Source: Escherichia coli (GTDB lineage: Bacteria; Pseudomonadota; Gammaproteobacteria; Enterobacterales; Enterobacteriaceae). From it: a stretch of DNA of 64,000 nucleotides. Positions 8,800-63,101 of this stretch are shown piece after piece. Numbering within the stretch: position 1 is the first letter of the stretch; each line of letters opens with the position of its first letter. Where the stretch lies: NCBI RefSeq assembly GCF_029227855.1, contig NZ_CP074356.1. The stretch is one strand, 5' to 3'. The notes under the pieces were generated by a model. That model was not told the DNA's origin. It did not search any database and saw only the letters and a program-made list of their open reading frames with translations. The position numbers and the translations under genes are program-made.

Positions 8800-10019
8800 A
8801 AATACTGGTCTACGGCATTAACTACTCGCCGGAGTTAACCGGCATCGGCAAATACACCGGAGAGATGGTGGAATGGCTTGCGGCACAAGGTCATGAGGTG
8901 CGGGTCATAACCGCACCGCCTTACTACCCGCAGTGGCAGGTGGGCGAGAACTATTCCGCCTGGCGCTACAAACGAGAAGAGGGGGCCGCCACGGTGTGGC
9001 GCTGCCCGCTGTACGTGCCAAAACAGCCGAGCACCCTGAAACGCTTGTTGCATCTCGGCAGTTTTGCCGTCAGCAGTTTTTTCCCGTTGATGGCGCAACG
9101 TCGCTGGAAGCCGGATCGCATTATTGGCGTGGTGCCAACGCTGTTTTGCACGCCGGGAATGCGCCTGCTGGCGAAACTCTCTGGCGCGCGTACCGTGCTG
9201 CATATTCAGGATTACGAAGTGGACGCCATGCTGGGGCTGGGCCTTGCCGGAAAAGGCAAAGGCGGCAAAGTGGCACAGCTGGCGACGGCGTTCGAACGTA
9301 GCGGACTGCATAACGTCGATAACGTCTCCACGATTTCGCGCTCGATGATGAATAAAGCCATCGAAAAAGGCGTGGCGGCGGAAAACGTCATCTTCTTCCC
9401 CAACTGGTCGGAAATCGCCCGTTTTCAATATGTTGCAGACGCCGATGTTGATGCCCTTCGTAACCAGCTTGGCCTGCCGGATAACAAAAAAATCATTCTT
9501 TACTCCGGCAATATTGGTGAAAAGCAGGGGCTGGAAAACGTTATTGAAGCTGCCGATCACCTGCGCGATGAACCGCTGATTTTTGCCATTGTCGGGCAGG
9601 GCGGCGGCAAAGCGCGGCTGGAAAAAATGGCGCAGCAGCGCGGACTGCGCAACATGCAATTTTTTCCGCTGCAATCGTATGACGCTTTACCCGCACTGCT
9701 GAAGATGGGCGATTGCCATCTGGTGGTGCAAAAACGCGGCGCGGCAGATGCCGTATTGCCGTCGAAACTGACCAATATTCTGGCGGTAGGCGGTAACGCG
9801 GTGATTACCGCAGAAGCCCACACCGAACTGGGGCAGCTTTGCGAAACCTTTCCGGGCATTGCGGTTTGCGTAGAGCCGGAATCGGTCGAGGCGCTGGTGG
9901 CGGGGATCCGTCAGGCGCTCCTGCTGCCCAAACACAACACGGTGGCATGTGAATATGCCGAACGCACGCTCGATAAAGAGAACGTGTTACGTCAATTTAT
10001 AAATGATATTCGGGGATAA
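8796..10019 (+). CDS. wcaI: Colanic acid biosynthesis glycosyltransferase WcaI (GT4)
   Basis: 407 aa ORF; GT4 architecture; conserved position. Confidence 0.92.
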
Positions 10020-10021
10020 TT

Positions 10022-11458
10022 ATGGCGCAGTCGAAACTCTATCCAGTTGTGATGGCAGGTGGCTCCGGTAGCCGCTTATGGCCGCTTTCCCGCGTACTTT
10101 ACCCCAAGCAGTTTTTATGCCTGAAAGGCGATCTCACCATGCTGCAAACCACCATCTGCCGCCTGAACGGCGTGGAGTGCGAAAGCCCGGTGGTGATTTG
10201 CAATGAGCAGCACCGCTTTATTGTCGCGGAACAGCTGCGTCAACTGAACAAACTCACCGAGAATATTATTCTCGAACCGGCAGGGCGTAACACTGCACCT
10301 GCCATTGCACTGGCGGCGCTGGCGGCAAAACGTCATAGCCCGGAGAGCGACCCGTTAATGCTGGTGCTGGCGGCGGATCATGTGATTGCCGATGAAGACG
10401 CGTTCCGTGCCGCCGTGCGTAATGCCATGCCGTATGCCGAAGCGGGCAAGCTGGTGACCTTTGGCATTGTGCCGGATCTACCAGAAACCGGTTATGGCTA
10501 TATTCGTCGCGGTGAAGTGTCTGCGGGTGAGCAGGATACGGTGGCCTTTGAAGTGGCGCAGTTTGTCGAAAAACCGAATCTGGAAACCGCTCAGGCCTAT
10601 GTGGCAAGCGGCGAATATTACTGGAACAGCGGTATGTTTCTGTTCCGCGCCGGACGCTATCTCGAAGAACTGAAAAAATATCGCCCGGATATTCTCGACG
10701 CCTGTGAAAAAGCGATGAGCGCCGTCGATCCGGATCTCGATTTTATTCGTGTGAATGAAGACGCGTTTCTGGCGTGCCCGGAAGAGTCGGTGGATTACGC
10801 GGTCATGGAACGTACGGCAGATGCTGTTGTGGTGCCGATGGATGCGGGCTGGAGCGATGTTGGTTCCTGGTCCTCTTTATGGGAAATCAGCGCCCACACC
10901 GCCGAGGGCAACGTTTGCCACGGCGATGTGATTAATCATAAAACTGAAAACAGCTATGTGTACGCCGAATCTGGCCTGGTCACCACCGTCGGGGTGAAAG
11001 ATTTGGTGGTAGTGCAGACCAAAGATGCGGTGCTGATTGCCGACCGTAACGCGGTACAGGATGTGAAAAAAGTGGTCGAGCAGATCAAAGCCGACGGTCG
11101 CCATGAGCATCGGGTGCATCGCGAAGTGTATCGTCCGTGGGGCAAATATGACTCTATTGATGCGGGCGACCGCTACCAGGTGAAACGCATCACCGTGAAA
11201 CCGGGCGAAGGCTTGTCAGTACAGATGCACCATCACCGCGCGGAACACTGGGTAGTGGTCGCGGGAACGGCAAAAGTCACTATTGACGGTGATATCAAAC
11301 TGCTTGGTGAAAACGAGTCCATTTATATTCCGCTGGGGGCGACGCACTGCCTGGAAAACCCGGGGAAAATTCCGCTCGATTTAATTGAAGTGCGCTCCGG
11401 CTCTTATCTCGAAGAGGATGATGTGGTGCGCTTCGCGGATCGCTACGGACGGGTGTAG
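10022..11458 (+). CDS. manC: Mannose-1-phosphate guanylyltransferase
   Basis: 478 aa ORF; nucleotidyltransferase N-terminus [14 protein letters not shown] and C-terminal cupin domain. Confidence 0.95.
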
Positions 11459-28297: not shown

Positions 28298-29704
28298 ATG
28301 TCAAAGCAACAGATCGGCGTAGTCGGTATGGCAGTGATGGGGCGCAACCTTGCGCTCAACATCGAAAGCCGTGGTTATACCGTCTCTATTTTCAACCGTT
28401 CCCGTGAGAAGACGGAAGAAGTGATTGCCGAAAATCCAGGCAAGAAACTGGTTCCTTACTATACGGTGAAAGAGTTTGTTGAATCTCTGGAAACGCCTCG
28501 TCGCATCCTGTTAATGGTGAAAGCAGGTGCAGGCACGGATGCTGCTATTGATTCCCTCAAGCCGTACCTCGATAAAGGTGACATCATCATTGATGGTGGT
28601 AACACCTTCTTCCAGGACACCATTCGTCGTAACCGTGAGCTTTCTTCAGAAGGCTTTAACTTCATCGGTACCGGTGTCTCCGGTGGTGAAGAAGGTGCGC
28701 TGAAAGGTCCTTCCATTATGCCTGGTGGGCAGAAAGAAGCCTATGAACTGGTAGCGCCGATCCTGACCAAAATCGCCGCAGTAGCTGAAGACGGAGAGCC
28801 ATGCGTTACCTATATTGGTGCCGATGGTGCAGGTCACTATGTGAAGATGGTTCACAACGGTATTGAATACGGTGATATGCAACTGATTGCTGAAGCCTAT
28901 TCTCTCCTGAAAGGCGGCCTGAATCTCTCTAACGAAGAACTGGCACAGACCTTTACCGAGTGGAATAACGGTGAACTGAGTAGCTATCTGATCGACATCA
29001 CCAAAGATATCTTCACCAAAAAAGATGAAGACGGTAACTACCTGGTTGATGTGATCCTGGATGAAGCAGCAAACAAAGGTACGGGCAAATGGACCAGCCA
29101 GAGCGCGCTGGATCTCGGCGAACCACTGTCTCTGATTACCGAGTCTGTGTTTGCACGTTATATCTCTTCTCTGAAAGATCAGCGCGTTGCCGCATCTAAA
29201 GTTCTTTCTGGTCCGCAAGCGCAGCCGGCAGGCGACAAAGCTGAGTTCATTGAAAAAGTTCGCCGTGCGCTGTATCTGGGCAAAATCGTTTCTTACGCTC
29301 AGGGCTTTTCTCAGCTACGCGCCGCGTCTGAAGAGTACAATTGGGATCTGAACTACGGCGAAATCGCGAAGATTTTCCGTGCTGGTTGCATCATCCGTGC
29401 GCAGTTCCTGCAGAAAATCACCGATGCATATTCCGAAAACCCGCAGATCGCTAACCTGCTGCTGGCTCCGTACTTCAAGCAAATTGCCGATGACTACCAG
29501 CAGGCGCTGCGTGATGTCGTTGCTTATGCGGTACAGAACGGTATCCCGGTTCCGACCTTCGCCGCTGCGGTTGCCTATTATGACAGCTACCGTGCTGCTG
29601 TTCTGCCTGCGAATCTGATCCAGGCTCAGCGTGACTATTTTGGTGCGCATACTTATAAGCGCATTGATAAAGAAGGTGTGTTCCATACTGAATGGCTGGA
29701 TTAA
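28298..29704 (+). CDS. gnd: 6-phosphogluconate dehydrogenase, decarboxylating
   Basis: 468 aa; [28 protein letters not shown]-terminus; matches recalled Gnd. Confidence 0.97.
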
Positions 29705-29729
29705 TCTGATTTAACCAACAATAAATTGA

Positions 29730-29760
29730 GGCCCGGCGTATATTACGCCGGGCTTTTTTG
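29730..29760 (+). terminator. Rho-independent terminator downstream of gnd
   Basis: gcccggcg tatatta cgccgggc stem-loop followed by a run of six T. Confidence 0.8.
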
Positions 29761-30470
29761 TGCACAGAAAACCCCCAGCTAGGCTGGGGGTTCCGGAAAG
29801 CTTTCAGCTTTGAGCCAGTTATTAAAACCCCTTTTGATTTGTTAAAACACTTTGCGGTCTGGCAACTGCAAGTGTCAAACAAGAAATCAAAAGGGGGTCC
29901 CAATGGGGAACGAAAAGAGCTTAGCGCACACCCGATGGAACTGTAAATATCACATAGTTTTTGCGCCAAAATACCGAAGACAGGTGTTCTACAGAGAGAA
30001 GCGTAGAGCAATAGGCAGTATTTTGAGAAAGCTGTGTGAGTGGAAAAGCGTACGGATTCTGGAAGCTGAATGCTGTGCAGATCATATCCATATGCTTGTG
30101 GAGATCCCGCCCAAAATGAGCGTATCCGGCTTTATGGGATATCTGAAAGGGAAAAGCAGTCTGATGCTTTACGAGCAGTTTGGTGATTTGAAATTCAAAT
30201 ACAGGAACAGGGAGTTCTGGTGCAGAGGGTACTACGTCGATACGGTGGGTAAGAACACGGCGAAGATACAGGATTACATAAAGCACCAGCTTGAAGAGGA
30301 TAAAATGGGAGAGCAGTTATCGATTCCCTATCCGGGCAGCCCGTTTACGGGCCGTAAGTAACGAAGTTGGATGCAAATGTCAGATCGTGTGCGCCTGTTA
30401 GGGCGCGGCTGGTAAGAGAGCCTTATAGGCGCATTTGAAAAACCTCCGGCTATGCCGGAGGATATTTATT
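29761..30470 (+). mobile_element. IS200-type insertion sequence (IS200/IS605 family), boundaries approximate
   Basis: About 0.7 kb with a single Y1 HUH transposase ORF; left-end hairpin acccccagctaggctggggg and right-end hairpin cctccggctatgccggagg; no terminal inverted repeats, as expected for IS200. Confidence 0.75.
29903..30361 (+). CDS. tnpA: IS200 transposase TnpA (Y1 HUH)
   Basis: 152 aa from MGNEKSLAHTRWNCKYHIVFAPKYRRQVFY; HIHMLVEIPP (HUH) motif; essentially the recalled Salmonella IS200 TnpA. Confidence 0.92.
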   Translation: MGNEKSLAHTRWNCKYHIVFAPKYRRQVFYREKRRAIGSILRKLCEWKSVRILEAECCADHIHMLVEIPPKMSVSGFMGYLKGKSSLMLYEQFGDLKFKYRNREFWCRGYYVDTVGKNTAKIQDYIKHQLEEDKMGEQLSIPYPGSPFTGRK

Positions 30471-30654
30471 TTTACCAATTATCTTATAGACTAAATTTCA
30501 CTGCTTAATATTAACTTAATAAATATCAGCTATTCTTATAAAGAAATTCTGAATTGTTTTTCGTTGCGTTGACCATCCAACAACGTAGCGTTAAAACTTT
30601 TAGCTCTTATCAGGATGCTAAAAACATCATGATTCACAGTTAAGTTAATTCTGA

Positions 30655-31830
<1,176 letters not shown>

Positions 31831-44752: not shown

Positions 44753-45811
44753 ATGTTTTCAATGATATTAAGCGGGCTAATTTGTGGTGCTCTGCTGGGA
44801 TTTGTCATGCAGCGTGGGCGTTTTTGCCTGACAGGTGGTTTTCGCGATATGTATATCGCGAAAAATAATCGCATGTTTTACGCCTTGCTGATTGCAATTT
44901 CGGTACAAAGCGTGGGGGTTTTTGCGTTAATTCAGGCGGGCCTACTGACTTACGAAGCCGGGGCGTTCCCGTGGCTTGGTACTGTTATAGGTGGGTATCT
45001 TTTCGGGCTGGGAATTGTTCTGGCGGGTGGATGTGCCACCGGGACCTGGTATCGCGCGGGTGAGGGATTGATCGGCAGTTGGATCGCGCTTTTCACTTAT
45101 ATGGTGATGAGTGCGGTGATGCGTTCTCCACACGCCAGTGGTTTAAATCAAACCTTGCAGCACTACAGTACTGAACATAACTCTATTGCTGAGACTTTTA
45201 ATTTGTCTGTGTGGCCGTTGGTTGCCGTTTTGCTGGTGATAACGCTCTGGGTAGTGATGAAAGAGTTGAAGAAACCAAAATTAAAAGTCGCGACCTTACC
45301 GCCGCGCCGAACCGGGATCGCTCATATTCTGTTTGAAAAACGCTGGCATCCCTTTGTCACTGCTGTACTCATCGGTTTGATTGCGCTTTTAGCCTGGCCC
45401 CTGAGTGAAGCAACCGGACGCATGTTTGGGTTAGGAATCACTTCCCCAACGGCCAATATTCTGCAATTTCTGGTCGCGGGTGACGTGAAATACATTAACT
45501 GGGGCGTTTTCCTGGTGTTAGGGATCTTCGTGGGGTCATTTATTGCAGCCAAAGCGAGTCGTGAGTTCCGCGTTCGCGCAGCTGATGCACAAACAACATT
45601 ACGTAGCGGGTTAGGTGGTGTACTGATGGGCTTCGGTGCCAGTATTGCAGGTGGTTGCTCTATCGGTAATGGACTGGTTATGACTGCAATGATGACCTGG
45701 CAGGGCTGGATTGGCCTTGTATTTATGATTCTCGGAGTCTGGACTGCGTCCTGGCTTGTGTATGTTCGACCGCAGCGTAAGGCGCGACTGGCAACTGCTG
45801 CGGCAAATTAA
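44753..45811 (+). CDS. yeeE: Thiosulfate transporter YeeE/TsuA (YeeE/YedE family membrane protein)
   Basis: 352 aa polytopic membrane protein with conserved Cys-containing loops (GRFCLTGG, GGCATGTWYR, GGCSIGNG). Confidence 0.92.
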   Translation: MFSMILSGLICGALLGFVMQRGRFCLTGGFRDMYIAKNNRMFYALLIAISVQSVGVFALIQAGLLTYEAGAFPWLGTVIGGYLFGLGIVLAGGCATGTWYRAGEGLIGSWIALFTYMVMSAVMRSPHASGLNQTLQHYSTEHNSIAETFNLSVWPLVAVLLVITLWVVMKELKKPKLKVATLPPRRTGIAHILFEKRWHPFVTAVLIGLIALLAWPLSEATGRMFGLGITSPTANILQFLVAGDVKYINWGVFLVLGIFVGSFIAAKASREFRVRAADAQTTLRSGLGGVLMGFGASIAGGCSIGNGLVMTAMMTWQGWIGLVFMILGVWTASWLVYVRPQRKARLATAAAN

Positions 45812-51346: not shown

Positions 51347-51790
51347 TTAGCGACAGCCTTCTTCTGTATGCAGCAAGGCAAAAAGTTCTGCAACTCCATT
51401 GTTATTAACCGCACTGGTTACTAACACATTGTGCGCTCCAGCTTCCCGTAACCAACTTTTCACCAAAGATATTTGTTCCATGCTGGCTAAATCTGCTTTG
51501 GTGACTACTCCAATGACCGGGCGATTCATTGACGAGGTAAAGCCTGGCGAAAAAGGGGACCACGGTGCGTCCGCATTAAGCACCAGGGCGATAATGTCCG
51601 CTTCGCAGGCGCTGACCAACAGAGCACTGTAGAGGCTGCGGTTTTCGAGGTATTCGCCTGGTGTATCAATGGTGGTCGGGGACCAGACGATTGCCTGCGT
51701 TTTCTGATAATGAATATTTTCGCCACGCAGACATTGCGTGAGTGACGTTTTTCCGCACTGGCTGGGGCCGATGAGCATCATACGTTGCAT
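51347..51790 (-). CDS. pduV: PduV, EutP/PduV-family small GTPase associated with the Pdu microcompartment
   Basis: 147 aa; P-loop [10 protein letters not shown]; matches recalled Salmonella PduV. Confidence 0.88.
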
Positions 51791-51794
51791 AACG

Positions 51795-52145
51795 TCAGGT
51801 CCGCGTAATGGGGCAGGCGGTAAAGCGCATCATTTCACCCAGCGTACGGGTAACCTGGCTAAGTGCATATTCAATGGCAGAAACATCACCAGTCAGCACT
51901 ACGGCACCGGTAAAACGATCAAGAAAACCGATCTCTACAGCGCCTGATTTTGTGGCGATATCACATGCGATGATAGATGCTTCGCTGGGGGTAATTGTCA
52001 GAATGCCAATAGCAGAAACGGTGTCTGGTAAACCCAATTTCTTAAACAGATCCTTCCCTGGATTGGCGATGACATGTGCCAGCGTGACCTGCTTACCAGG
52101 GACATATTCCTGAATCATCCGTTCAGTTGTGTGCTGAGTTGTCAT
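51795..52145 (-). CDS. pduU: PduU, BMC shell protein (circularly permuted BMC domain)
   Basis: 116 aa from [32 protein letters not shown]; near-identical to recalled Salmonella PduU. Confidence 0.9.
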
Positions 52146-52699
52146 TATCCCTCCACCATCTGACGCCACATGGCTTCATGTGGACGGGCAATCACCGACC
52201 GATAGACCAACAAACCTTTTTCTCCCGCACGCTCGCTGGCGACAGAGACCGCGTTATTAACATCTGAAATATCGCCAGCAACCACCATGTAGCATTTACC
52301 GCCAATGCCAAAAGCCATATGCACGCGAACAAGAATGACATTCGCAGCTTTGACAGCACAATCGGCAGCGTCAATGCAGGCGGCGACACTCCAGGTTTCG
52401 ACTACGCCGACAGCCCGGTGCTGTTCAACTTGGTTCAGTCCGCTGGTTGCAGAAAGGAGGCTGGGATGAATATTCGGCAGGACAAGACTGTCGACCAGCA
52501 TTTCACCAGCAAGGGAAGCACCGCTGTTGATGGCCTGTTGCACCGCGCCCACATCGCCACCGAGCATCAGCAGAAATTTTCCGGGGCATAGCGTTTTGCT
52601 GACCAGTAACTCAACGTTGGCGCTTTTCAGCATGGCGTCGCCGGTTTCCATCCCTTTCGCGATACTGCTAAGTTCTAAAATACCTACCGCTTTCGACAT
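52145..52699 (-). CDS. pduT: PduT, tandem-BMC-domain shell protein
   Basis: 184 aa with two BMC domains; [29 protein letters not shown]. Confidence 0.9.
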
Positions 52700-52701
52700 C
52701 G

Positions 52702-54045
52702 TTAACCTCTCACAAGCGTAATCGCGTTTTCTGTCACATCGCTGACCATGCCATCAATACTGGCATGAATGGGGGCACCTAATGTGCCGTGTGGAATTTG
52801 ACCTACACATTGCCCATGAACGACGCGATCGCCTTTTTGTACACACGCAATTGCGCTGGCACCGATGTGCTGGCGTAACAATAACGTCACTTTTTCGGTC
52901 TGAGGCACCTGTTCAGACAATGGCGCATCCTGATACCACGGGGTTAAGCCAAGTCTGGTTACCAGCCGTTTTACGGGAATCAGTCGATAATTTGCCATGG
53001 GATCTGCAGGATTTAAGGTACCTTCGTAACGGAGATTTTGTGCGCGTAATTCTTGCTTAAGCAGGCGGTTTATGCGCATTGGTGAAATTCCTACCGGACA
53101 GGCGACGCTGGCGCAGACGTTGCACTCCGAACAGGTGAGCGCCGTCAGTAACAGTTGTGGCGTAGCGAGCTGTTGGTAGTTAACCGCACGTACTAATAAA
53201 TGGGGTGCCAGTTCGTGACCGATTAAATGACGTGGGCAGAGATCGGTACACAAGCGGCATTGCTCACAAACAGTTTTCGCGACGGCAAGTACGCTGCGGT
53301 CATTCTGCATTCGACGTTGGATCAGTGAATGAGAGTTGGGTAAAACCAGCAAGCCGCCAGTGGTTTTGCTGACTGGTGTGTCGAGCGATGTGATCAAACT
53401 TCCCATCATCGGCCCGCCATTGATAAAACCAGGAGCATCCACTGTTGCGCCGCCCGCCAGCGCCAGGACTTCACGTAAAGACATGCCGATGGGGACGGTT
53501 ACCGTTATTGGTTTCGCCACTGCACCATTAACGGTGAGTGTGCGGCGCGTCACTGGATACTGTTGCTCGACGGCTCTGGCAATATTAAGTACGGTTTGAA
53601 CATTATTGACCACCACACCGACGTTAACGGGTAATGCAGCGGGTGGAACACGGCGACCAGTTGCCATCCAGATGGTCAGCACTTCGTCTCCTGCGGGGTA
53701 AACGTCGGGCAAAATATGCAGGCGGATATCCGGTGGTAACAGTGGTGTGAGTGCGTTTATTGCCCGTTGATATTTCTCTTTCAGCGCGATGATTCCGCTA
53801 CTGGCCCCGGTGGCTTTCATCGCATAGTGAACACCGCGAAGCAGGCGGCTGGCTTGCTGCGCCATTAACTGTTGATCCACTTTCAACATTGGTTCGCATT
53901 CCGCCGCATTCACCAGGAACGTGTCAACACGCGCTTGTAGCTTAATATGGGTTGGGAAACCTGCGCCGCCAGCACCCACGACACCAGCTGCCTGTACTCG
54001 CTCGCGGATGGTCTGGTCGTCGCAGGAGGTTAACTCGACGTTCAT
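52702..54045 (-). CDS. pduS: PduS, cobalamin reductase (RnfC/NuoF-like flavoprotein with two 4Fe-4S motifs)
   Basis: 447 aa; GAGGAGFP nucleotide-binding motif; Cys clusters [12 protein letters not shown] and [13 protein letters not shown]. Confidence 0.9.
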
Positions 54046-55154
54046 AACAACTCCTCGAGCAGTTCTGCAATAGCGGTGGCATCAGCCGTACGCGGGTTGG
54101 TACGCAACGTTGCATCCGCCAGTGCCGCCTGAACCATATCTGGTATGCGTATTGACCATTCTGCTTTTTTTTCTTTCAGCACATTGGTAAGAGTCGGTAG
54201 CTTACAGGTTGTTTTAAGCTGTTCAATATGTTGAATAAGTATATTCAGGCTGGCGGTGTCATTGGCGTTGTCCGGGCATAAATGGCACGTTTTCGCCAGC
54301 CGGGCGTAGCGTTTGGCAGCGCGCGGATCGCCAGCATTAAAGCGGATAACCGCCGTGAGCAGGAGCGCATTCGCCAGGCCGTGTGGCAGATGAAACTGTC
54401 CGCCGAGTTGATGAGCAATTGCATGGTTTAATCCCAGTCCAGCTTGGCTAAAGGCCATTCCTGCAAGTGTCGATGCATTATGCATTTTGCCACGGGTGGC
54501 GAGACAATCGCCTTTCTTCACTGCAGTGGGCAGGTATTGAAAAACAATTTGCACGGCTTTTTCGACCAGTGCATCCGTGAAGTCGCTGGCGCGGGGAGAA
54601 ACATAAGCTTCAAGCGCATGGGTTAAAACATCCATCCCGGTATTGGCCGTTATCGCCGGTGGCACGCTGACGATCAGAGATGGATCAAGGATCGCGATAT
54701 CCGGATAAAGTGCATTATCGAAAAGGGGATATTTAATCCCTTTCTCAGGATCGCTGATGACACAAGCACTGGTCACTTCGGAACCGGTACCGCTGGTGGT
54801 AGGAATGGCTACGCAGGTTTCAATTTCAATGCCACACTGGCGACCGAACCAGACAATCGCTTTTGCGGCGTCCAGGGCAGAACCGCCGCCAAAACCGATA
54901 ACCACATCCGGGCGTAAAGTCTGCATTTGCGCAATGCCTTTCACCACGGTCTGGATAGTTGGGTCGGGCGTTATTTCGCTAAAAATACTAAGACGATTAC
55001 TGTCGGGCAGCGCCTGATGCAACGTGTTAATGAGTGGTGAGCGTGCCAGAAAGACGTCGCAAATAATCCAGATGTGTTTATGAGAGAAACGGCTAAGTAC
55101 CTTGAGACTTCCCGGTCCGCTGTATAAACGCGTCTGCAGTGAAAAAGTATTCAT
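54042..55154 (-). CDS. pduQ: PduQ, iron-containing 1-propanol dehydrogenase
   Basis: 370 aa; Fe-ADH family glycine-rich region GFGGGSALDAAKA. Confidence 0.9.
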   Translation of the reverse strand: MNTFSLQTRLYSGPGSLKVLSRFSHKHIWIICDVFLARSPLINTLHQALPDSNRLSIFSEITPDPTIQTVVKGIAQMQTLRPDVVIGFGGGSALDAAKAIVWFGRQCGIEIETCVAIPTTSGTGSEVTSACVISDPEKGIKYPLFDNALYPDIAILDPSLIVSVPPAITANTGMDVLTHALEAYVSPRASDFTDALVEKAVQIVFQYLPTAVKKGDCLATRGKMHNASTLAGMAFSQAGLGLNHAIAHQLGGQFHLPHGLANALLLTAVIRFNAGDPRAAKRYARLAKTCHLCPDNANDTASLNILIQHIEQLKTTCKLPTLTNVLKEKKAEWSIRIPDMVQAALADATLRTNPRTADATAIAELLEELL

Positions 55155-55164
55155 TTCCGTTTCT

Positions 55165-56550
55165 CTAGCGAATTGAAAAGCCGCTGGTTAACACGCAGCG
55201 TCGTGAGCGGGCAAAAGTCCGTGCTGACGTTGTCCCTTCTCCGGTCGGTGTTGCAATGGTAAAGGTCGTAAAGCCTTCGCCGCCGACGCCAATACCCGCC
55301 CAGGAGGGGCCGTTTTTGACAAAGATTGAGGTTTGCATAACGCGTGCGGTAAGGTTGAGCCGTGAGACGTTCTGCGAGTGCATAATTGCCGTGTGGTGCA
55401 AGCCGTCTTCCACTTTCAGCGCCAGGGTGAGAGCGCTATCAAAATCGTTGACCTTCACAATGGGCAGCATTGGCATCAGTTGTTCACAAGTAACCCAACT
55501 ATCATTGGCGTCGACAACAGCAATCAGTAGGCGCGGCGCTTTTGCGGGCAAAGGGAGGCCTGCCGCTTCCAGCAAGGCTGATGGGCTTTTCCCAACCAGT
55601 TTTTTGTTGGCGCTACCGTCTGGCAGGCAAATTGCACGCAATTTCTCCGTTTGCTCATAGTTAAGAAGAAGCGCGCCAAAACTTTGCATCTGCTGAATTA
55701 AATAATCTGCCACTGATGCCACGACAATCAGGCTTTTTTCAGCAATACACGGCAGGTTGTAATCAAATGAAGCGCCGTTGATGATGTCCTCGGCGGCTTT
55801 CACAATATCCGCCGTTTCATCGACGATGCACGGAGGGTTACCCGCTCCGGCACCAATCACTTTCTTGCCACTTTTCATTCCCATGGCGACGATCCCCGGA
55901 CCGCCGGTAATCGCCAGAACGCTGATTTTAGGGTGCGCCATCATCTGTTCGGTTGCAGCAAAGGTCGGTTCAGATACGGTAACGATCAGGTTATGAATGC
56001 CACTACAACGAAACGCGATGTCTTCGATTGTGGTAATCAGTTTTAACGAAACGTATTTGGCTCCCGGGTGTGGACTGAAGTAGACGCTATTACCTGCTGC
56101 CAGCATGCTGATGCTGTTGTTAATGATGGTTTCCGTGGGGTTGGTGCTTGGCGTGACCGAGCCAATAACCCCAAACGGGGAGTATTCAAACAAAACCATG
56201 CCACCATCACCGGTTAGTGCAGTGGTGGTTAAATCTTCAATTCCTGGCGTGTTATCAAGTGCCGCTTTGTTTTTTAGGTACTTATCTTCTTTATTTCCCA
56301 TCCCCGTTTCTTTGGCGCTTTCTTCTGCCAGTTCGGTCAGGCGGGGTATTAATTCTTCGCGAATGGCGCTGATAATGGCGCTACGGGTTTTAAGCGGGCA
56401 CTGTTGAAAGCGTAAAAAGGCCTGGTGTGCTGCGCAGACCGCTTCATCAACAGTCTGGAAAATAGCGTTTCTTTGCATTCGTTGCGTAGCGGGGGCAAGC
56501 TGCTCACGCAGAATATTGCGGATCAGTGTTTCTAATTCAGAGTTATTCAT
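55165..56550 (-). CDS. pduP: PduP, CoA-acylating propionaldehyde dehydrogenase
   Basis: 461 aa aldehyde dehydrogenase with N-terminal amphipathic extension MNNSELETLIRNILREQL. Confidence 0.92.
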   Translation of the reverse strand: MNNSELETLIRNILREQLAPATQRMQRNAIFQTVDEAVCAAHQAFLRFQQCPLKTRSAIISAIREELIPRLTELAEESAKETGMGNKEDKYLKNKAALDNTPGIEDLTTTALTGDGGMVLFEYSPFGVIGSVTPSTNPTETIINNSISMLAAGNSVYFSPHPGAKYVSLKLITTIEDIAFRCSGIHNLIVTVSEPTFAATEQMMAHPKISVLAITGGPGIVAMGMKSGKKVIGAGAGNPPCIVDETADIVKAAEDIINGASFDYNLPCIAEKSLIVVASVADYLIQQMQSFGALLLNYEQTEKLRAICLPDGSANKKLVGKSPSALLEAAGLPLPAKAPRLLIAVVDANDSWVTCEQLMPMLPIVKVNDFDSALTLALKVEDGLHHTAIMHSQNVSRLNLTARVMQTSIFVKNGPSWAGIGVGGEGFTTFTIATPTGEGTTSARTFARSRRCVLTSGFSIR

Positions 56551-57554
56551 TGGTTTACTCCCACGTTAATTGCCGCCATTGCGCTTTGGGCAATATCCAT
56601 GTCTTGTTCAACGCTACCACCGCTGATGCCAAGCCCCCCGAGCAATATTCCGTCACGCCAGAGGGGGAAGCCGCCACCAAAGGTGACGACTTTGCCTTGC
56701 ATATGGCTTTCGAGCCCGTAAAGCGGCGCGCCGGGTTGCACGGTATCAGCAAGTTTGTGGGTTGCCGTTTTCATCGCCACGGCAGTCCAGGCTTTTTTCG
56801 GTGCCAGTTCACTGCTGACCAACAGGGCATCAGGCATCCGCCAGGTAACACTTTCTGTTCCGTTGGCATCAACAATGCTGATGACAACGGGAATATGCAG
56901 TTCATCCGCGCGCATTGCCGCACTACGAATGAGCTGGTGAAGATCCTGAAAAGTGAGCGGCATTGTGCGTTCCTTCAATGCTGGTGTGTGGTTGGCTTTG
57001 TGATAACGTTTTGTGATTTCCTGAATTATCAGGTTTTGATGAGCGACGTTGTCTTCCACGCGGGCGAGGGCATACAGGCAATCGGAAAGTCGGTTGATAT
57101 AGTGCAGCAAAACATTCCGGACGGTGATTTCCGTTGTCAGTTCAACCAGACGTCTTTCAGCACGTCGAGCCACCGTGCGGGCGAAATGCATACGGCTTGC
57201 AGCTTCACATCGCCCAGGCAGAATGAAGCTGTGAACTGGGGGGACGGCGTTCATTGCGCTATCGATCGCGTTTTCCAGCGCGGCAATTTCTTCCGTACCG
57301 ATGTAACGCAGCTGCGCTGACGGCTGTTCGCTTTCACTGGCAAGTTCGGCGCTAAACCAAAATATCTGTTGTTGAATGGCTTCCAGTAAGATGCGATGGC
57401 TTTCGATGGCGGTGGCGCAATAACACAGACTGAGTGTCGCGTTCAGTTCATCCAGCGTGCCATAGGTTTCGACACGTAGATGAGTTTTGCTGACGCGCTG
57501 TCCGGTAAATAAAGACGTACTTCCTGAATCACCTGTTCGGGTATAAATTGCCAT
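56547..57554 (-). CDS. pduO: PduO, ATP:cob(I)alamin adenosyltransferase with C-terminal DUF336 domain
   Basis: 335 aa; MAIYTRTGDSGSTSLFTGQRVSK N-terminus typical of PduO-type ATR. Confidence 0.92.
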   Translation of the reverse strand: MAIYTRTGDSGSTSLFTGQRVSKTHLRVETYGTLDELNATLSLCYCATAIESHRILLEAIQQQIFWFSAELASESEQPSAQLRYIGTEEIAALENAIDSAMNAVPPVHSFILPGRCEAASRMHFARTVARRAERRLVELTTEITVRNVLLHYINRLSDCLYALARVEDNVAHQNLIIQEITKRYHKANHTPALKERTMPLTFQDLHQLIRSAAMRADELHIPVVISIVDANGTESVTWRMPDALLVSSELAPKKAWTAVAMKTATHKLADTVQPGAPLYGLESHMQGKVVTFGGGFPLWRDGILLGGLGISGGSVEQDMDIAQSAMAAINVGVNQ

Positions 57555-57565
57555 CTTTCAGCTCC

Positions 57566-57841
57566 TTAGCGCGAAAGCGTATCGACAATGCCGACCACTG
57601 CCAGGTCGATGGCCTCGTTAGGGCCGGAAAACACATGTCTGGCGCTGGAACCACTGCTGAGGAGTACCAACTCACCAACGCCTGCGCCGACTGAATCAAC
57701 GGCAACTTCGTCGCCGGTTAATGGCGTGAGAGGCAGTTCGCCGTCAGCACTGACCCGGCGAACCAGCAGCAGTTTTTTCCCGATCAGAGATGGTGATTTT
57801 TGCGTGGATACTACCGCGCCAGTGACTCGAGCCAGATGCAT
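57566..57841 (-). CDS. pduN: PduN, BMC vertex (pentamer) protein of the EutN/CcmL family
   Basis: 91 aa; [17 protein letters not shown]. Confidence 0.9.
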
Positions 57842-57844
57842 AGG

Positions 57845-58336
57845 TTACTCCTGCCTAATTAACTGAATATTTCGGGTAATTGCCGCTTCACGAGCCAGTG
57901 CGGTCACACAACATTTCCGCTGTAACACCAGTATTCCCGAGCTTAACTGTGCGATATCGGCATAACTTAAAAGTCGATCACGATGAAGGTAGATCGGTTG
58001 CCCTTGTTCGTCGCACCAGCTTAGCGGTAGACGGGCGAGAGTCTTCAATTCAATGGCGTTCAGGAAATGACGCTGCAACGACAATTGAATGTGCATTCCC
58101 CAGGCTAACGCTTCGTGTATCTGGATTGCTGCTCGATCTGACGTTTCGTTCTCCGCAAGTTGTCGCAGCAGCGGCAGATCGACATATCGGATTTGTAATG
58201 ACGCATACTGATGAACGCTCTCTTGAACGCTGGCGTCTCGCAGTTGAAAAACAGTCAGCACGAGTGCTTTTCTCGCACGTTGTTTAAGGCGAAAAACCAC
58301 CTCGTCAACAATACGTTGCATCAGCATGTTATTCAT
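57845..58336 (-). CDS. pduM: PduM, microcompartment structural protein
   Basis: 163 aa; position between pduL and pduN; length matches recalled Salmonella PduM. Confidence 0.8.
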   Translation of the reverse strand: MNNMLMQRIVDEVVFRLKQRARKALVLTVFQLRDASVQESVHQYASLQIRYVDLPLLRQLAENETSDRAAIQIHEALAWGMHIQLSLQRHFLNAIELKTLARLPLSWCDEQGQPIYLHRDRLLSYADIAQLSSGILVLQRKCCVTALAREAAITRNIQLIRQE

Positions 58337-58965
58337 GGCACTGACACCAGTGTGGCAAAAACGTCAGGGCTATCAGCGCCTGCGGCGTTGGCCTCATCGG
58401 TATCAATATGCATTTCAAGACGCATATCCGGAGAGACGCGAACAGCGACGTTTTCGAATATCAGTCGTCGCTCACCACCTTCAATGGCAACCGCCACTTT
58501 ATCGCCATGCGTAACGCCATAAATCAGGGCATCCAGCGGAGACATATGAATATGCCGTTGCGCGACAATGACGCCAGATGTGATCTCCAGTTCCGCAAAT
58601 GGGCTTATCAAACGAATCCCCGGAGTGCCGCTGAGATCGCCTGACATGCGTAGCGGGGCGGTGATCCCTAACGTTCTGGCGTCCGTCCGGGAAATTTCCA
58701 CCTGGCTTGCATTGCGTAGCGGCCCCAACAAGCGAACGTTGTGCAATTTGCCTTTTGGTCCCTCCAGCGTAACAACCTGTTCAGCAGCGAATTGGCCAGG
58801 TTGCATTAACGGCTTTTTCTCGCTAATCGGTTGTTCAGGAAAAAGACGCAAATAATCCGCTGTTGAAAGATGAATATGGCGACTGGAAACGCCCAGTGGG
58901 ATAGGGCGCTCGCGCATCTCATCCAGAATCTGGCTCACTGTTTCCTGCAGGGTTTGTTTATCCAC
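58333..58965 (-). CDS. pduL: PduL, phosphate propanoyltransferase
   Basis: 210 aa; N-terminal MDKQTLQETVSQILDEM amphipathic peptide followed by PduL/EutD-type domain. Confidence 0.9.
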   Translation of the reverse strand: MDKQTLQETVSQILDEMRERPIPLGVSSRHIHLSTADYLRLFPEQPISEKKPLMQPGQFAAEQVVTLEGPKGKLHNVRLLGPLRNASQVEISRTDARTLGITAPLRMSGDLSGTPGIRLISPFAELEITSGVIVAQRHIHMSPLDALIYGVTHGDKVAVAIEGGERRLIFENVAVRVSPDMRLEMHIDTDEANAAGADSPDVFATLVSVP

Positions 58966-58967
58966 TG

Positions 58968-59390
58968 CTACTCCCCTCGCTTATTGGCGTACAGGCAAAG
59001 TGAGCGGGGCTCACCTTTTTGCCGCTGACATGCCGGGTCAAGACACAAATTACAACTGATAATCTCTGAGGTGACGGTTGTTGCTGGTGTTTTGCTTGTT
59101 TCAACCGTCACGGTCAATGCTTCAATTGTGTGGGGCAGAATGCCGTCTCCCGGGCGGGCAATCACTTTGTGTGCGACAAGGCCATTTCGCTGTCCGGCGA
59201 AACTGGCTCCCGTCGCGATCGCCGCATTAACCGAGGCGACGTCACCGGTGATTTTGATGAGCGTCCAGCCTGAGCCATTGGTCTTCTCAAGGCCAACCAG
59301 CGTGATGGACGCGGCTTTTGCCATAGCGTCTGCGCAACTGATGGCGAGAGCCAGACCACTGACTTCAAGTAATCCCAGTGATTGCTTCAC
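58968..59390 (-). CDS. pduK: PduK, BMC shell protein with Cys-rich C-terminal extension
   Basis: 140 aa; N-terminal BMC domain MKQSLGLLEVSGLALAISCADAMAKAA; C-terminal CNLCLDPAC...C. Confidence 0.88.
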   Translation of the reverse strand: MKQSLGLLEVSGLALAISCADAMAKAASITLVGLEKTNGSGWTLIKITGDVASVNAAIATGASFAGQRNGLVAHKVIARPGDGILPHTIEALTVTVETSKTPATTVTSEIISCNLCLDPACQRQKGEPRSLCLYANKRGE

Positions 59391-59413
59391 GCTGTGCTCC
59401 TTAGCGAATGGGG

Positions 59414-59689
59414 TTATGCTGATTTAGGTAAAATAGCCTCAACATCACTGTGTGGGCGCGGGATGACATGGCAGGATTTCACTTCGCCAACGGCGCTTGC
59501 GGCGGCGCTTCCTGCATCAACGGCGGCTTTTACTGCGCCAACATCGCCACGGACCATCACCGTAATCAGACCCGAACCAATCTTTTCATAGCCAACCAGC
59601 TGCACGTTGGCGGATTTAACCATGGCATCTGCAGCTTCAATTGCGCCAACTAACCCTTTTGTTTCAACCAGTCCTAGTGCGTTGTTCAT
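59414..59689 (-). CDS. pduJ: PduJ, major BMC hexamer shell protein
   Basis: 91 aa; [40 protein letters not shown]. Confidence 0.9.
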
Positions 59690-59708
59690 ACTGCATTTCT
59701 CCTGTGGA

Positions 59709-60059
59709 TTATGAGTGGAGTTCCCGGAAGGGAATCCCTTTTACCAGGCGGGCAGCGTTAGAGCCAATGCTGCGCCGGGCATGGTTATCTTGTTGATACA
59801 TCAGCGTAAACAGTGGCGCTGATGCCGGTAAGTTTTTGTAATGCACAATCAGTTTTTCCTGATCGCAGGCAATGCCAACCAACAGGGGAGATTGACTAGC
59901 AGCCAGCCAGGCGCTATCGATAACTTCACCTGACGGAATGTGTTGAATGCGAAAGGGAATACCTTCCTCTTCAATGCCAAGAAGCACCTCATCCCATATA
60001 GTGATGCAGTTACCGATCTCCATGACGACGATGGCTGGTGCACGCTCTTTACTTTCCAT
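59709..60059 (-). CDS. pduH: PduH, diol dehydratase reactivase small subunit
   Basis: 116 aa; start overlaps the pduG stop; position after pduG. Confidence 0.85.
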
Positions 60060-61881
60060 GAATCGACTCCTTGTGCCAGGCGATGAGTAGCCCAGTAGCT
60101 ACCGCGTTGCGCGGACCTTCGCTACCACGGATATTCCCCCGTCCGGCGACCAATCGATAATGCGCCAATGCATCGGTGACTAACTGCGGTACTTCGAAAT
60201 CCAGCGAAGAACCGCCCACCAGAACGACGAACGGAATATCGCGAATATTTCCGGCAGGGCTTACCTGACGTAGCGCGCGCAGGGCATTGGTTACGAAGAC
60301 ACGCTCTTTCGCACTGCGGCGGACAGCGCGTACTTTTTCCAGCGTCAAATCACCGGGAATGGGCACCAGTTCGTCGGGTTTCACTACACAGACGCGGGCA
60401 AATACATGGGGGGATAGGGGAGTAGGGAAGAACTGAACGCTGCCATCTTCATGGCGTAAGTGGAACAGGCTTTCTACTTTTGCCAACGGGTACTTTTTGA
60501 TTTCTTCTGCCAGATAACGATCATTTAAGCCCAGCTCACGAGCGATAATCATCGTTACCATGTCGCCCGCTCCCGCAAGGTGAGTGGCAACAATTTCTCC
60601 TTTCTGATTGATGATGGAGGCATCGGTAGAGCCTGCACCTAAGTCCAGAATTGCCAGTGGACGTGTGGTTCCAGGGGTAGTCAAGGCCCCCTGAATGGCG
60701 GCTTCTGCTTCTGCGCCTCCGACCTGAACATCAACATGCAGTTTTTGCTTAATTTCACTGGCGATCATTGCCATTTGCAGACGGTCGGATTTCACCATAG
60801 AGGCAATACCCACAGCCTGTTCCAGTGAAAATTCACCTGCCAGACCGCCGGTTACGCTGACGGGGACAGAGGTATCTATCGCCAGCAAATCCTGAATAAA
60901 AATTTCGTTGCTGGGTTTGTTGGTCAGTTCCGCCATGGTCTGGCGAACATGTTCCAGCATTCCGCCGATGTTGGTGCCTGGTTCTCCCGTCACGTTTTCC
61001 AGTTTTGGGCACTCACCGACCGCTTTCATAATGGCATCGGCACCAGCAGCTACATCAACGCGCGTTGTGCGCCCGGCAGAAAGCAGTTCGATATTTCCGG
61101 CGGGTATCGAACGGGCTTTAACGTCGCCAGAAGGCGTTTTCACTACCACTGCTGAACGGTTGCCGATTAGCGCCCGCGCGACAGGAACAATATTTTTAGT
61201 CTCTTCAGCATTGAGGGCGAAAACGGTGGCAATCCCATACGGGTTAGACAGGGTTTCGATAACTTTCCCGGGAACGGCAACTTCAATTGCAGCCAGCATG
61301 CCGAGCGGAATACGATCGATGTAGAGGACTTCATCAACAATAGGTACAGCAATTTCCAGGCGGTTACTGACCAGCACGCCATCGTCGCGTTGCAGAATAA
61401 CGCCAGTCAGCTGATATCCGGCACGTACGGAGGCGTTTATCATCGTCGCGATATCGGCAAAATCAAATGCCGATGACACCACCAGGATGTAAGGTGTGTC
61501 CGCCGGGCGTGTTAATAACTCTTGCGGAGTGATGGTGAGCCCTACGCCCAGCCCCACTCCGCCCGGAGTTTTCGGGTTGTGACCGATCATGGTTGATTCG
61601 GTGATGATGGTTTCAGTGATGGTTTCCATCGCCACATCACCAATGACCGGAGTTGCTTCGTTGATACGAATAAGCGAAATATCGCTAACATTGATGCCGA
61701 CTTTTTTCGTTGCCTGTGCGAGCGCCTCCTGAATACCATGGACGTTACGCAACGTACCTTTAATTCCGGTGGTTTCCGCCAGGGCGCTACTCACGAACGA
61801 CAACTCTCCAGTTGCACTGAGCGTTGCCAGCGCAACCTCTGTTGATGAGTTGCCGATATCAATGCCTGCTATATATCGCAT
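60049..61881 (-). CDS. pduG: PduG, diol dehydratase reactivase large subunit
   Basis: 610 aa; MRYIAGIDIGNSSTEVALA N-terminus (ASKHA ATPase fold). Confidence 0.92.
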   Translation of the reverse strand: MRYIAGIDIGNSSTEVALATLSATGELSFVSSALAETTGIKGTLRNVHGIQEALAQATKKVGINVSDISLIRINEATPVIGDVAMETITETIITESTMIGHNPKTPGGVGLGVGLTITPQELLTRPADTPYILVVSSAFDFADIATMINASVRAGYQLTGVILQRDDGVLVSNRLEIAVPIVDEVLYIDRIPLGMLAAIEVAVPGKVIETLSNPYGIATVFALNAEETKNIVPVARALIGNRSAVVVKTPSGDVKARSIPAGNIELLSAGRTTRVDVAAGADAIMKAVGECPKLENVTGEPGTNIGGMLEHVRQTMAELTNKPSNEIFIQDLLAIDTSVPVSVTGGLAGEFSLEQAVGIASMVKSDRLQMAMIASEIKQKLHVDVQVGGAEAEAAIQGALTTPGTTRPLAILDLGAGSTDASIINQKGEIVATHLAGAGDMVTMIIARELGLNDRYLAEEIKKYPLAKVESLFHLRHEDGSVQFFPTPLSPHVFARVCVVKPDELVPIPGDLTLEKVRAVRRSAKERVFVTNALRALRQVSPAGNIRDIPFVVLVGGSSLDFEVPQLVTDALAHYRLVAGRGNIRGSEGPRNAVATGLLIAWHKESIHGK

Positions 61882-61890
61882 AGTTCGTCC

Positions 61891-62409
61891 TTAATCGTCG
61901 CCTTTCAGTTTTTTGCGCTCGACATAAAGTTCCGCAGCTTCACGGACAAATGCAGCACAAATTTTGGCCTGATAACGCCGTTCAAGATCGTCAGCAATGG
62001 CAATAAGTTCTTGCTTAGTCGAACGATAAGGGCGTAACGCATTGTAGATTTCGAGGATGCGATCATCCGGTACTGAGGTAAGCTCAGCGGCGCGTTCAAA
62101 ATTCATCGCCAGGCGATCGCGACCAGCATCTCTGGCAATCGCGGCCTGAATACGCAATGTTTCAGGGGTTATACGCATATCCTGGGCGGTGACGTTATCG
62201 CTGAGTACATTTTCCAGAGTGAAATCGTCGAGCGTTTTATTGGTCGCCGTTTTAACCCATTCCGGATGTTTATTTGCCAGCGGATAATCCGTCACTTTGG
62301 CGCTCTGTATTGACGCGTTGGGTGCCGCAGAAACAGGAGCTGCATCCTGTAAACTGTTCATGCGATTCAACACGTCCCTGACCATCGACTCAATTGCATC
62401 GGTATTCAT
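61891..62409 (-). CDS. pduE: PduE, B12-dependent diol dehydratase small (gamma) subunit
   Basis: 172 aa; matches recalled PduE. Confidence 0.9.
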   Translation of the reverse strand: MNTDAIESMVRDVLNRMNSLQDAAPVSAAPNASIQSAKVTDYPLANKHPEWVKTATNKTLDDFTLENVLSDNVTAQDMRITPETLRIQAAIARDAGRDRLAMNFERAAELTSVPDDRILEIYNALRPYRSTKQELIAIADDLERRYQAKICAAFVREAAELYVERKKLKGDD

Positions 62410-62423
62410 GAAGGTTTCCTTTG

Positions 62424-63092
62424 TTAAAACGTCACGCGCAGTTCTTGCGGTTTTTTGCCAGTGACCACGTACTTCGTCTCTTTAATATGCAAAATGGCAG
62501 ATTTGGCCTGGTATTTCGGCCGCGCCATTTGATCGTTGAGGGTCGGCACCGGTTGTGGAGACTCACGCTTTGCATAACGCGCGGCGTTTTTGCCAATCTG
62601 ACGATAAGTTTCCAGCGTCAACAAAGGCGCTTGTGGGAATAGTTCCAGGTTAGACAAGGGAGGAAGACCTTGCTGGTGGATAACCGTTGTGCCTTTCGAC
62701 TGAATACCGATAGCAATACCTGAACCACTAAGACGATCGCCTTCGACTGCTACGAATGCGACATCGGACGATTTAAAGCAGCGAATCACACGGGCTTTAA
62801 TGCCTTCTTCTTCGATACCAGCAATCACTTCGCGCAAGATGTTTTTATGCGGAATACCGATGATATTGACGGTTTGCGCCAGGCCGAACGCCGGGCCTAC
62901 AGCAATAATGACTTCATCTTGCTGAGTGCCTTGTTGGGCTTCGCCAATTTCGGCCAGAAAAGTTCCGGTATCTGGCGCGGAAGAGACAGTTGCACAGGCA
63001 GGTGCGCGAAATGAAACGGGCTTGTCGCTGGTTTGCATTTCTGCCAGCACGTCTTCGATAATCTGACGCAGTAATTTTTCGTTAATTTCCAT
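62424..63092 (-). CDS. pduD: PduD, B12-dependent diol dehydratase medium (beta) subunit
   Basis: 222 aa; N-terminal [19 protein letters not shown] amphipathic peptide. Confidence 0.92.
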
Positions 63093-63101
63093 TTCTCACC
63101 C

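Follow-up and report, generated by a model that had tools for sequence, protein, structure and literature searches.

The spacer between gnd and ugd in the Escherichia coli DNA analysed here (64,000 nt, hereafter the window) is occupied by an IS200-type element, which raises the question of how the element came to lie there and whether its arrival has consequences for the two genes. A first-pass annotation, made from the sequence alone, had described an IS200 with an intact tnpA gene and a terminator hairpin of its own, lying beyond the gnd terminator and ahead of the ugd promoter region, and had proposed that it could insulate ugd from gnd read-through or mark the boundary of a transferred segment. 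Our reading, to which we assign a probability of roughly 0.85 as a whole, is that the element is a complete IS200C that would have entered recently by terminator-directed "peel-and-paste" insertion at the T-run of gnd, with a near-neutral outcome. A literature search for IS200 in connection with gnd and ugd returned nothing relevant.

The gnd-ugd spacer harbours a complete IS200C

Positions 29760..30470 (+ strand) constitute a complete IS200C of 711 bp that has neither terminal inverted repeats nor a target duplication. With 29761..30470 (710 bp) as query, 10,727 places matched in 3,096 of the 5,426 complete genomes of E. coli that were searched. In 2,063 genomes the match is full-length, with an identity of up to 100%, and these copies are annotated as 'IS200/IS605-like element IS200C family transposase'. 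The window copy is 99.9-100% identical at the nucleotide level, over its full length, to hundreds of annotated copies of this NCBI-named E. coli element and shares their organisation, i.e. left-end hairpin, 5'UTR stem-loop, tnpA, and right-end hairpin. It is separated by one SNP from dispersed copies such as L002 and L003, is identical to the IS200C located at ymgK-ymgL of strain 315, and has a private T at 29851 when compared with copies like L003, L007 and L008. Within the window, a search for inverted repeats with a minimum length of 40 gave none, and no further IS200 copies or repeats were found.

The only gene of the ~0.7-kb element is tnpA (29903..30361, + strand), which is the sole long ORF in its frame; tnpB is missing. 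Its intact product of 152 aa, beginning with MGNEKSLAHTRWNCKYHIVF, is a Y1 HUH transposase with the HUH motif H61-I-H63 and the conserved Tyr125, and is identical to WP_000526135.1, a protein that NCBI names IS200C. The Pfam family Y1_Tnp (PF01797, 'Transposase IS200 like') matches it with E = 4.4e-38 over model positions 2-121 of 121, and the NCBIfam equivalog NF033573 with 147.7 bits at a cut-off of 55. Relatives with solved structures in the PDB are the Sulfolobus TnpA proteins 2ec2 and 2f4f, the TnpA of IS608 (2a6m) and the TnpA of ISDra2 (2xm3), and Tyr125, the surroundings of which (QDYIKHQ) correspond to KKYIEEQ in Sulfolobus TnpA 2ec2, lines up with the conserved tyrosine of that protein. 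Every defining feature of the IS200 group within the IS200/IS605 family that we looked for is present, and the element is apparently transposition-competent, to which the 24 copies in a near-identical genome and the presence or absence of the insertion on a single flank haplotype bear indirect witness. It is an ordinary, already catalogued IS200C, annotated in the near-identical RefSeq genome of E. coli JNEC-KY178, where IS200C occupies 24 places. The first-pass assignment to IS200 with an intact tnpA is thus borne out by the full-length IS200C match, the 152-aa ORF and the Y1_Tnp and NF033573 matches, and the likeness to IS200 extends beyond the tnpA ORF, as Rfam STnc490 matches 29770..29893 and both subterminal hairpins are present.

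Structured ends and 5'UTR

At the left end, a GAAAA motif (29767..29771, + strand), a candidate guide sequence, is located directly 5' of the left-end hairpin (29770..29792, + strand, nt 11-33 of the IS), which has a folding energy of -18.7 kcal/mol (+ strand) or -20.7 kcal/mol (- strand) and has been described both as bidirectional terminator and as TnpA-binding hairpin (PMC4513863, PMC5435999). According to published work on IS200, this hairpin terminates transcription in both directions without Rho and halts ~85% of the transcripts that run into it (PMC5435999, PMC4513863), and both this literature and the folding energy at 29770..29792 confirm that the element brings its own terminator hairpin, as had been proposed from the sequence.

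The match to STnc490 (RF01405; 29770..29893, + strand; 144.6 bits with a gathering score of 56, E = 1.2e-30) spans the left-end hairpin and the tnpA 5'UTR stem-loop and is antisense to the published art200 sRNA. The 5'UTR stem-loop itself (29828..29896, + strand) folds with -37.2 kcal/mol (z = -5.2) and serves to sequester the Shine-Dalgarno sequence of tnpA (PMC4513863); the private T at 29851 turns a G-C into a G-U pair within its stem. The right end (30437..30470, + strand) comprises GAAAAA (30437..30442), an 8-bp hairpin (30443..30461; -15.9 kcal/mol, z = -4.4) and the 9-nt tail ATATTTATT up to the cleavage point. This hairpin is terminator-like on both strands and was the only one listed in our consensus promoter/terminator scan, which missed the left-end hairpin and the gnd terminator, so that these two were folded directly. 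The right end of IS200C has the look of a terminator and mimics the target of the element. All three hairpins of the element, i.e. left-end, 5'UTR and right-end, fold far better than shuffled controls.

Exact ends and the empty site

The strain CUVM3 agrees with the window in its O23 O-antigen cluster and in its gnd allele, but its gnd-ugd site is empty, reading ...GCCGGGC TTTTTTTTT ACCAATT, whereas the filled site in the window reads ...GCCGGGC TTTTTT, then the element (GTGCACAG ... GGATATTTATT), then TTT ACCAATT, a net gain of 711 bp. Owing to the T's at the junction, alignment placement is ambiguous by up to 2 nt, and the ends were therefore fixed from copies elsewhere. The right end ...GGATATTTATT is shared by copies at other loci, where unrelated sequence comes next, and independent copies have a left end that begins with G; in a tandem arrangement in Yersinia pestis the right end of one copy is followed directly by the G of the next. 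Because copies elsewhere end in this way and the next tandem copy opens with G, the ends of the window element are 29760 and 30470, so that of the interval given in the first-pass annotation (29761..30470) the right end holds, while the left end was one base short.

When 29760..30470 is removed in silico, the remaining sequence matches 16 complete E. coli genomes with 100% identity over 600 bp. Therefore, the ends are exact, no target duplication was generated, and the haplotype did not have the element ancestrally. The comparison of gnd-ugd spacers that had been suggested for identifying the empty site is thus successful, with identical flanks in these 16 genomes, and the idea that the segment might be ancestral in all relatives is refuted by its absence from the same 16.

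A recent insertion in the interior of a recombined block

A near-identical relative of the window is JNEC-KY178, a clinical isolate from Japan, with differences at 6 of 64,000 positions; JNEC-KY178 has a nonsense mutation in tsuA that the window does not have. The window is thus a close sister of JNEC-KY178 and a different sequence. Upstream of the IS, CUVM3 shows a single mismatch to the window in 6,760 bp; the 1,030 bp downstream are free of mismatches, and from ~31,500 onward, inside ugd, it diverges by ~3%. S1-CAM-01-C, the site of which is also empty, is near-identical to the window in a block from ~19,630 to ~42,000 and 2-3% diverged on both sides of it. This common block of ~22 kb comprises galF, the O23 cluster, gnd, ugd, wzzB, the his operon and yefM-yoeB and contains 8 genuine SNPs, an alignment artefact at the junction being excluded from this count. 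Its sole length difference by pairwise alignment is the IS, which lies ~10 kb from either breakpoint.

The proposal that the IS marks the boundary of a transferred segment is contradicted by these comparisons. The breakpoints are found at ~19.6 kb and ~42 kb (S1-CAM-01-C) and at ~31.5 kb (CUVM3), none of them at the IS, which is interior to the block shared with either strain. A shared background with the IS200C-rich O102 genomes was considered as well and rejected, the window being only ~97.5% identical to WCHEC4533 over 22.9 kb downstream. The insertion is recent in the lineage of the window and took place after the spread of the ~22-kb O23-gnd-ugd-his block.

The same nucleotide is occupied in other haplotypes

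In a survey of the site with a 2.2-kb query across gnd, IS and ugd, 102 of the 5,426 genomes gave one collinear piece, i.e. a filled site in the same orientation. Nearly all other matching genomes have the two flanks ~1,490 bp apart, corresponding to the empty state, and a few have IS1 at the gnd-ugd site instead of IS200. In all six filled loci that were examined, from four O-antigen backgrounds, the junction is at the identical nucleotide. The O102 flank haplotype (e.g. WCHEC4533) is filled in at least 52 genomes, and the filled O102 genomes among the matches listed have 18-35 IS200C copies each; O102 flanks with an empty site occur in 28Eco12 and, with one T fewer, in AR_0067, YDC107 and others. 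Two genomes with an rfbBDAC-type cluster, A29 (capybara) and USMARC-51688 (cattle), carry the gnd-ugd copy as the sole IS200 of the genome, and in the O160 background the site is filled in 210205630 and KKo009.

Each of the four haplotypes has its own flank alleles in addition to its own SNPs within the IS, which are T at 29851 in O23 (the window), G at 30130 and A at 30244 in O102, T at 30049 and G at 30155 in A29 and USMARC, and eight changes in O160, among them Arg25 to stop. Inside haplotypes the element moves together with its flanks, since the O160 pseudogene copy is found in two genomes that differ downstream. The nearest flank SNPs that separate the window from the other filled haplotypes examined are 29745, 15 nt to the left, and 30474, 4 nt to the right of the IS, and the window alleles, A at both positions, are shared with the empty O23 genomes. 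Therefore, the element was not imported by homologous recombination, and the insertion in the O23 haplotype is independent.

Two alternative histories of the site have to be weighed against a recent and independent insertion. If the IS were ancestral in the O23-gnd-ugd block, the empty sites would have to be the product of precise excision, which is conceivable in so far as excision in the IS200/IS605 family is seamless (PMC5027513) and leaves a former donor site that looks as if it had never been occupied, and empty and filled sites do coexist on one flank haplotype, in O23 as well as in O102. We nevertheless regard such losses as improbable: 16 genomes with identical flanks are empty, and the only filled one in the collection is JNEC-KY178; the hosts of the empty genomes are diverse, and some of these genomes, e.g. 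S1-CAM-01-C and CUVM3, have a background that has diverged from that of the window; moreover, the window IS is separated by no more than that one SNP from dispersed copies (L002, L003) and not at all from the copy at another locus of strain 315. Still further from our expectation, and very improbable, is that the IS was imported with its flanks by homologous recombination and that all 102 filled sites go back to one old insertion. The identity of nucleotide and orientation in the 102 genomes would be accounted for in this way, and hitch-hiking within a haplotype is real, as seen from the O160 nonsense mutation present in two genomes and from the SNPs common to A29 and USMARC. However, the O23 alleles reach right up to the element, so that the crossovers would have to fall within 15 nt or less on the left and 4 nt or less on the right, whereas RecA-dependent recombination needs more homology than that, and the flank SNPs at 29745 and 30474 rule out this route for the window.

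Choice of the target

The target of the insertion is the intrinsic terminator of gnd (29728..29759, + strand), which consists of a 13-bp hairpin (29728..29753) and the T's 29754..29759. Weak Rfam hits to Leu_leader and anti-hemB at 29696..29761 (23.1 and 20.7 bits with gathering scores of 50 and 49.5, respectively) were rejected, as they correspond to this terminator. The E. coli IS200C sites that we read, among them those downstream of gnd, htpX and icd and the one between ymgK and ymgL, all follow a G+C-rich hairpin and a T-run (...TTTTT; 5 of 5), and in Y. pestis the element has even used its own right end as target, a second copy being located exactly after the tail of the first.

In order to describe the target beyond E. 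coli, one genome per species was scanned with the 22-nt left hairpin, which gave 118 distinct left junctions of IS200-group elements from Y. pestis, Vibrio, Brenneria, Pluralibacter, Edwardsiella and Budvicia as well as from metagenome-assembled genomes (MAGs) labelled Mailhella, Desulfovibrio, Oxalobacter, Bacillota, Peptococcaceae and Saccharibacteria. At least four T's are present in the last six flank bases of 115 of the 118 junctions, as compared to 5% of 1,200 random positions, and each of the flank positions -6 to -1 is a T in 78 to 114 of the 118. A perfect hairpin of at least 6 bp that ends no more than 10 nt away precedes 90 of the junctions (76%), although this strict form of hairpin is absent from the other 28; the corresponding value is 8.8% for random positions and 6.4% for 3,227 other T5 runs of the same loci, and the T-run alone was rejected as an explanation of the site on this ground. 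The commonest distance from the foot of the hairpin to the insertion point is 6 nt, which is also the distance at gnd.

On the side of the element, all variants keep GAAAA directly 5' of the left hairpin, and likewise GAAAAA 5' of the right one, while the left tip of 6-7 nt varies. In IS608 a guide sequence pairs with the cleavage and target site, and by analogy we infer that the GAAAA motif may read the T-rich target. The GC skew of the + strand is positive throughout the window and, therefore, the T-run belongs to the lagging-strand template, which agrees with a family-wide bias for this template and for insertion 3' of a short specific sequence (PMC5027513).

Based on these observations, the course of events may be pictured as follows. 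The element would have used the single-strand "peel-and-paste" mechanism typical of the IS200/IS605 family, in which the top strand of a donor copy, presumably one of the ~23 other IS200C copies of the genome, would be excised as a circle and pasted without duplication directly 3' of a T-run, in this case the T's of the intrinsic terminator behind gnd on the + strand, i.e. the lagging-strand template according to GC skew. The IS200 group would choose hairpins with a short T-rich tail behind them that ends in TT, in other words intrinsic terminators, which resemble the right end of the element itself; it is because of this preference that 102 of 5,426 genomes would have the same nucleotide occupied, and in the same orientation. 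What counts against this picture is that IS200 is almost dormant in the laboratory (PMC4513863), so that frequent re-insertion at one site is surprising, although 24 copies are found in JNEC-KY178.

One may go a step further and speculate that IS200-group transposases actively recognise terminators as mimics of their right end, i.e. a hairpin, a spacing of 4-6 nt and a T-rich tail ending in TT, presented as single-stranded DNA on the lagging-strand template and read by the GAAAA guide, and that the gnd terminator, at the edge of the E. coli O-antigen locus, is a hot spot of integration precise to the nucleotide and hit independently in at least two, and probably at least four, haplotypes. We advance this more specific proposal tentatively, at slightly less than even odds. 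Selection for harmless sites behind terminators could also contribute to the association. In a recent preprint, terminator-like sequences were found to be over-represented upstream of IS200/IS605 elements by statistics at the family level, and the upstream terminators were interpreted as a limit on transposase expression rather than as part of target recognition (10.1101/2025.07.22.666184). The target rule at nucleotide level described here goes somewhat beyond that family-level finding.

Consequences for gnd and ugd

The upstream neighbour of the element is gnd (6-phosphogluconate dehydrogenase; 28298..29704, + strand), a 468-aa ORF annotated as gndA (WP_000043507.1) in JNEC-KY178, and the downstream neighbour is ugd (UDP-glucose 6-dehydrogenase; 30664..31830, + strand), a 388-aa ORF annotated as ugd in the same genome; the spacer between them amounts to 959 bp in the window. 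The hairpin of the gnd terminator is intact (-23.1 kcal/mol, z = -4.8), and 6 of its 9 T's are left after the insertion. On the other side, the 193 bp from the IS to the ugd start codon are unchanged, including a predicted PmrA/BasR box of the ugd promoter region (30504..30520, + strand), which lies intact 34 nt downstream of the IS and matches the pattern CTTAAT-N5-CTTAAT perfectly, the half-site consensus being taken from the literature (PMC3973317). The placement given by the first-pass annotation, with the gnd terminator on one side and the ugd promoter region on the other, is therefore upheld by the terminator at 29728..29759 and the box at 30504..30520. In Salmonella, ugd has a PhoP site 145 nt upstream of one of its start sites (PMC3335776). 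If there are ugd regulatory sites more than 193 bp upstream in E. coli, they are now displaced by 711 bp.

As the gnd hairpin with six T's and the ugd-proximal 193 bp are kept and two more hairpin terminators now lie between the genes, the effect of the insertion on gnd and ugd is, from what the sequence suggests, likely to be close to neutral. The insulation of ugd from gnd read-through that had been envisaged is possible, but would be largely redundant, and its additional effect is likely marginal because the gnd terminator is already strong and the ugd-proximal 193 bp are untouched.

An alternative would be that the insertion has been kept as useful, e.g. because it shields ugd from the RfaH-driven transcription of the O-antigen genes and gnd, supplies IS200 5'UTR and art200 small RNAs, or modifies the regulation of ugd. 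The efficiency of the left-end terminator (~85%) and the regulation of Salmonella genes by RNAs derived from the IS200 5'UTR (PMC5435999) speak for such a role, and so does the O102 haplotype, where at least 52 genomes have the site filled; however, frequency within one clone is no evidence of selection. The gnd terminator, moreover, was present before, the O160 copy has been kept although it is now a decayed pseudogene, and most genomes lack the element, all of which fits neutrality. We thus consider retention for a benefit improbable, and a recent, terminator-directed and near-neutral insertion of IS200C remains our preferred reading.

Relation to known mobile elements and implications

Among the closest known systems are IS200 of Salmonella and IS1541 of Yersinia, with which the element shares the left-end hairpin sequence (the common 22-nt pattern; the Salmonella element being compared by description), the right end ...GGATATTTATT and the insertion after a hairpin and a T-run. 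It differs in length from Salmonella IS200, for which 707 bp instead of 711 bp are quoted (PMC4513863), and in the left tip from IS1541, which has GTGCCCAG where the window has GTGCACAG. IS608 and ISDra2, the family members characterised mechanistically, have Y1 HUH transposases that are related to the window TnpA with E = 4e-19 and 2e-16, respectively. Common to these elements and IS200C are subterminal hairpins, the lack of a duplication and insertion 3' of a short specific target that adjoins the left end; the orientation in the window fits the lagging-strand template as well (PMC5027513). In contrast to IS200C, IS608 and ISDra2 carry tnpB, and whereas the target of IS608 is TTAC, that of IS200C is T-rich and ends in TT. 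The strong association with a preceding hairpin in IS200C is not described for IS608. The target of ISDra2 is TTGAT.

Homing to a site just downstream of intrinsic terminator hairpins is a property of group IIC (bacterial class C) introns, which belong to the retroelements and have a ribozyme as well as a reverse transcriptase. They are similar to IS200C in the target only, not in membership. If terminators are indeed actively recognised by IS200-group transposases, IS200 would be the DNA-transposon counterpart of these terminator-homing introns.

For the gnd-ugd locus itself little is at stake, as a catalogued IS is located in the spacer and the neighbouring genes and their signals are intact. 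Nevertheless, IS200 has landed in the gnd-ugd spacer repeatedly and at precisely the same nucleotide, and its presence there is homoplastic, so that it is unsafe as a clonal or serotype marker unless the SNPs inside the IS are checked. Beyond this locus, the target rule, i.e. a terminator hairpin with a T tail ending in TT, could explain the distribution of IS200-group elements in Escherichia, Yersinia, Vibrio and gut anaerobes.

Genomic context of the insertion

Between positions 19630 and 42000 the window is nearly identical to S1-CAM-01-C, an E. coli comparator that has the O23 block in common with it and in which the gnd-ugd site is empty; only 8 genuine SNPs are found over ~22 kb, and the flanking DNA on either side diverges from this comparator by 2-3%. 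The stretch comprises galF, the O23 O-antigen cluster, gnd, ugd, wzzB, the his operon and yefM-yoeB and, judged from the sequence, it looks like an O-antigen block transferred by recombination, with one breakpoint apparently near wcaM/galF and the other near yoeB/yeeZ. Next after tmaR, the window carries a propanediol-utilisation (pdu) microcompartment operon (51350-64000, - strand); in S1-CAM-01-C the equivalent place is occupied by nothing more than transposase fragments and a truncated remnant of EutP/PduV.

JNEC-KY178, a genome in which the gnd-ugd site is filled, differs from the window at 6 positions over the 64 kb, and thus the window represents a close sister strain. The tsuA (yeeE) gene is intact in the window (44753-45811), but in the JNEC-KY178 record, which otherwise matches almost exactly, a SNP at 44906 introduces a nonsense codon.

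The gnd-ugd spacer contains a predicted PmrA/BasR box, i.e. the perfect direct repeat CTTAATATTAACTTAAT at 30504-30520, which precedes the ugd start codon by 144 nt and lies 34 nt downstream of the IS200C copy, and this repeat is kept in every haplotype aligned. In two other E. coli genomes, H37 (YJ6) and H57 (SBF22), the spacer harbors an IS1 family transposase, and thus this short region also gathers unrelated IS families. Two O160 genomes, 210205630 and KKo009, carry IS200 at the same gnd-ugd site as a pseudogene (9903-10361 in both loci, L134 and L135), in which Arg25 is replaced by a stop codon and which has seven more private changes. As the two genomes share this pseudogene but are unlike in their downstream sequence, KKo009 having an O8/O9-type cluster past wzzB, it is an old insertion that moves with the O160-gnd segment.

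IS200-group elements beyond the gnd-ugd site

The Rfam STnc490 match (29770-29893), which covers the left end of IS200C, lies on the tnpA-sense strand. According to the literature, the STnc490/art200 sRNA is antisense to the tnpA 5'UTR; the Rfam model seems to describe a sense-strand structure.

The IS200 left hairpin is found 14-230 nt from a contig end in many metagenome-assembled genomes (MAGs) that carry the labels Mailhella, Bacillota, Peptococcaceae and Desulfovibrio, and its 22-nt sequence in these MAGs is identical to that in Enterobacteriaceae. Evidently, such multi-copy IS200 elements interrupt the assemblies.

Yersinia pestis NCTC5923 contains head-to-tail tandems of IS1541, an IS200-group element, at three loci, L083 (about 300-370), L084 and L086. 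In the L083 flank the second copy begins directly behind the ...GGATATTTATT of the first, and in L084 and L086 two left-hairpin matches are separated by 710 bp. The head-to-tail arrangement thus implies that the right end of the element is itself a target for another copy.
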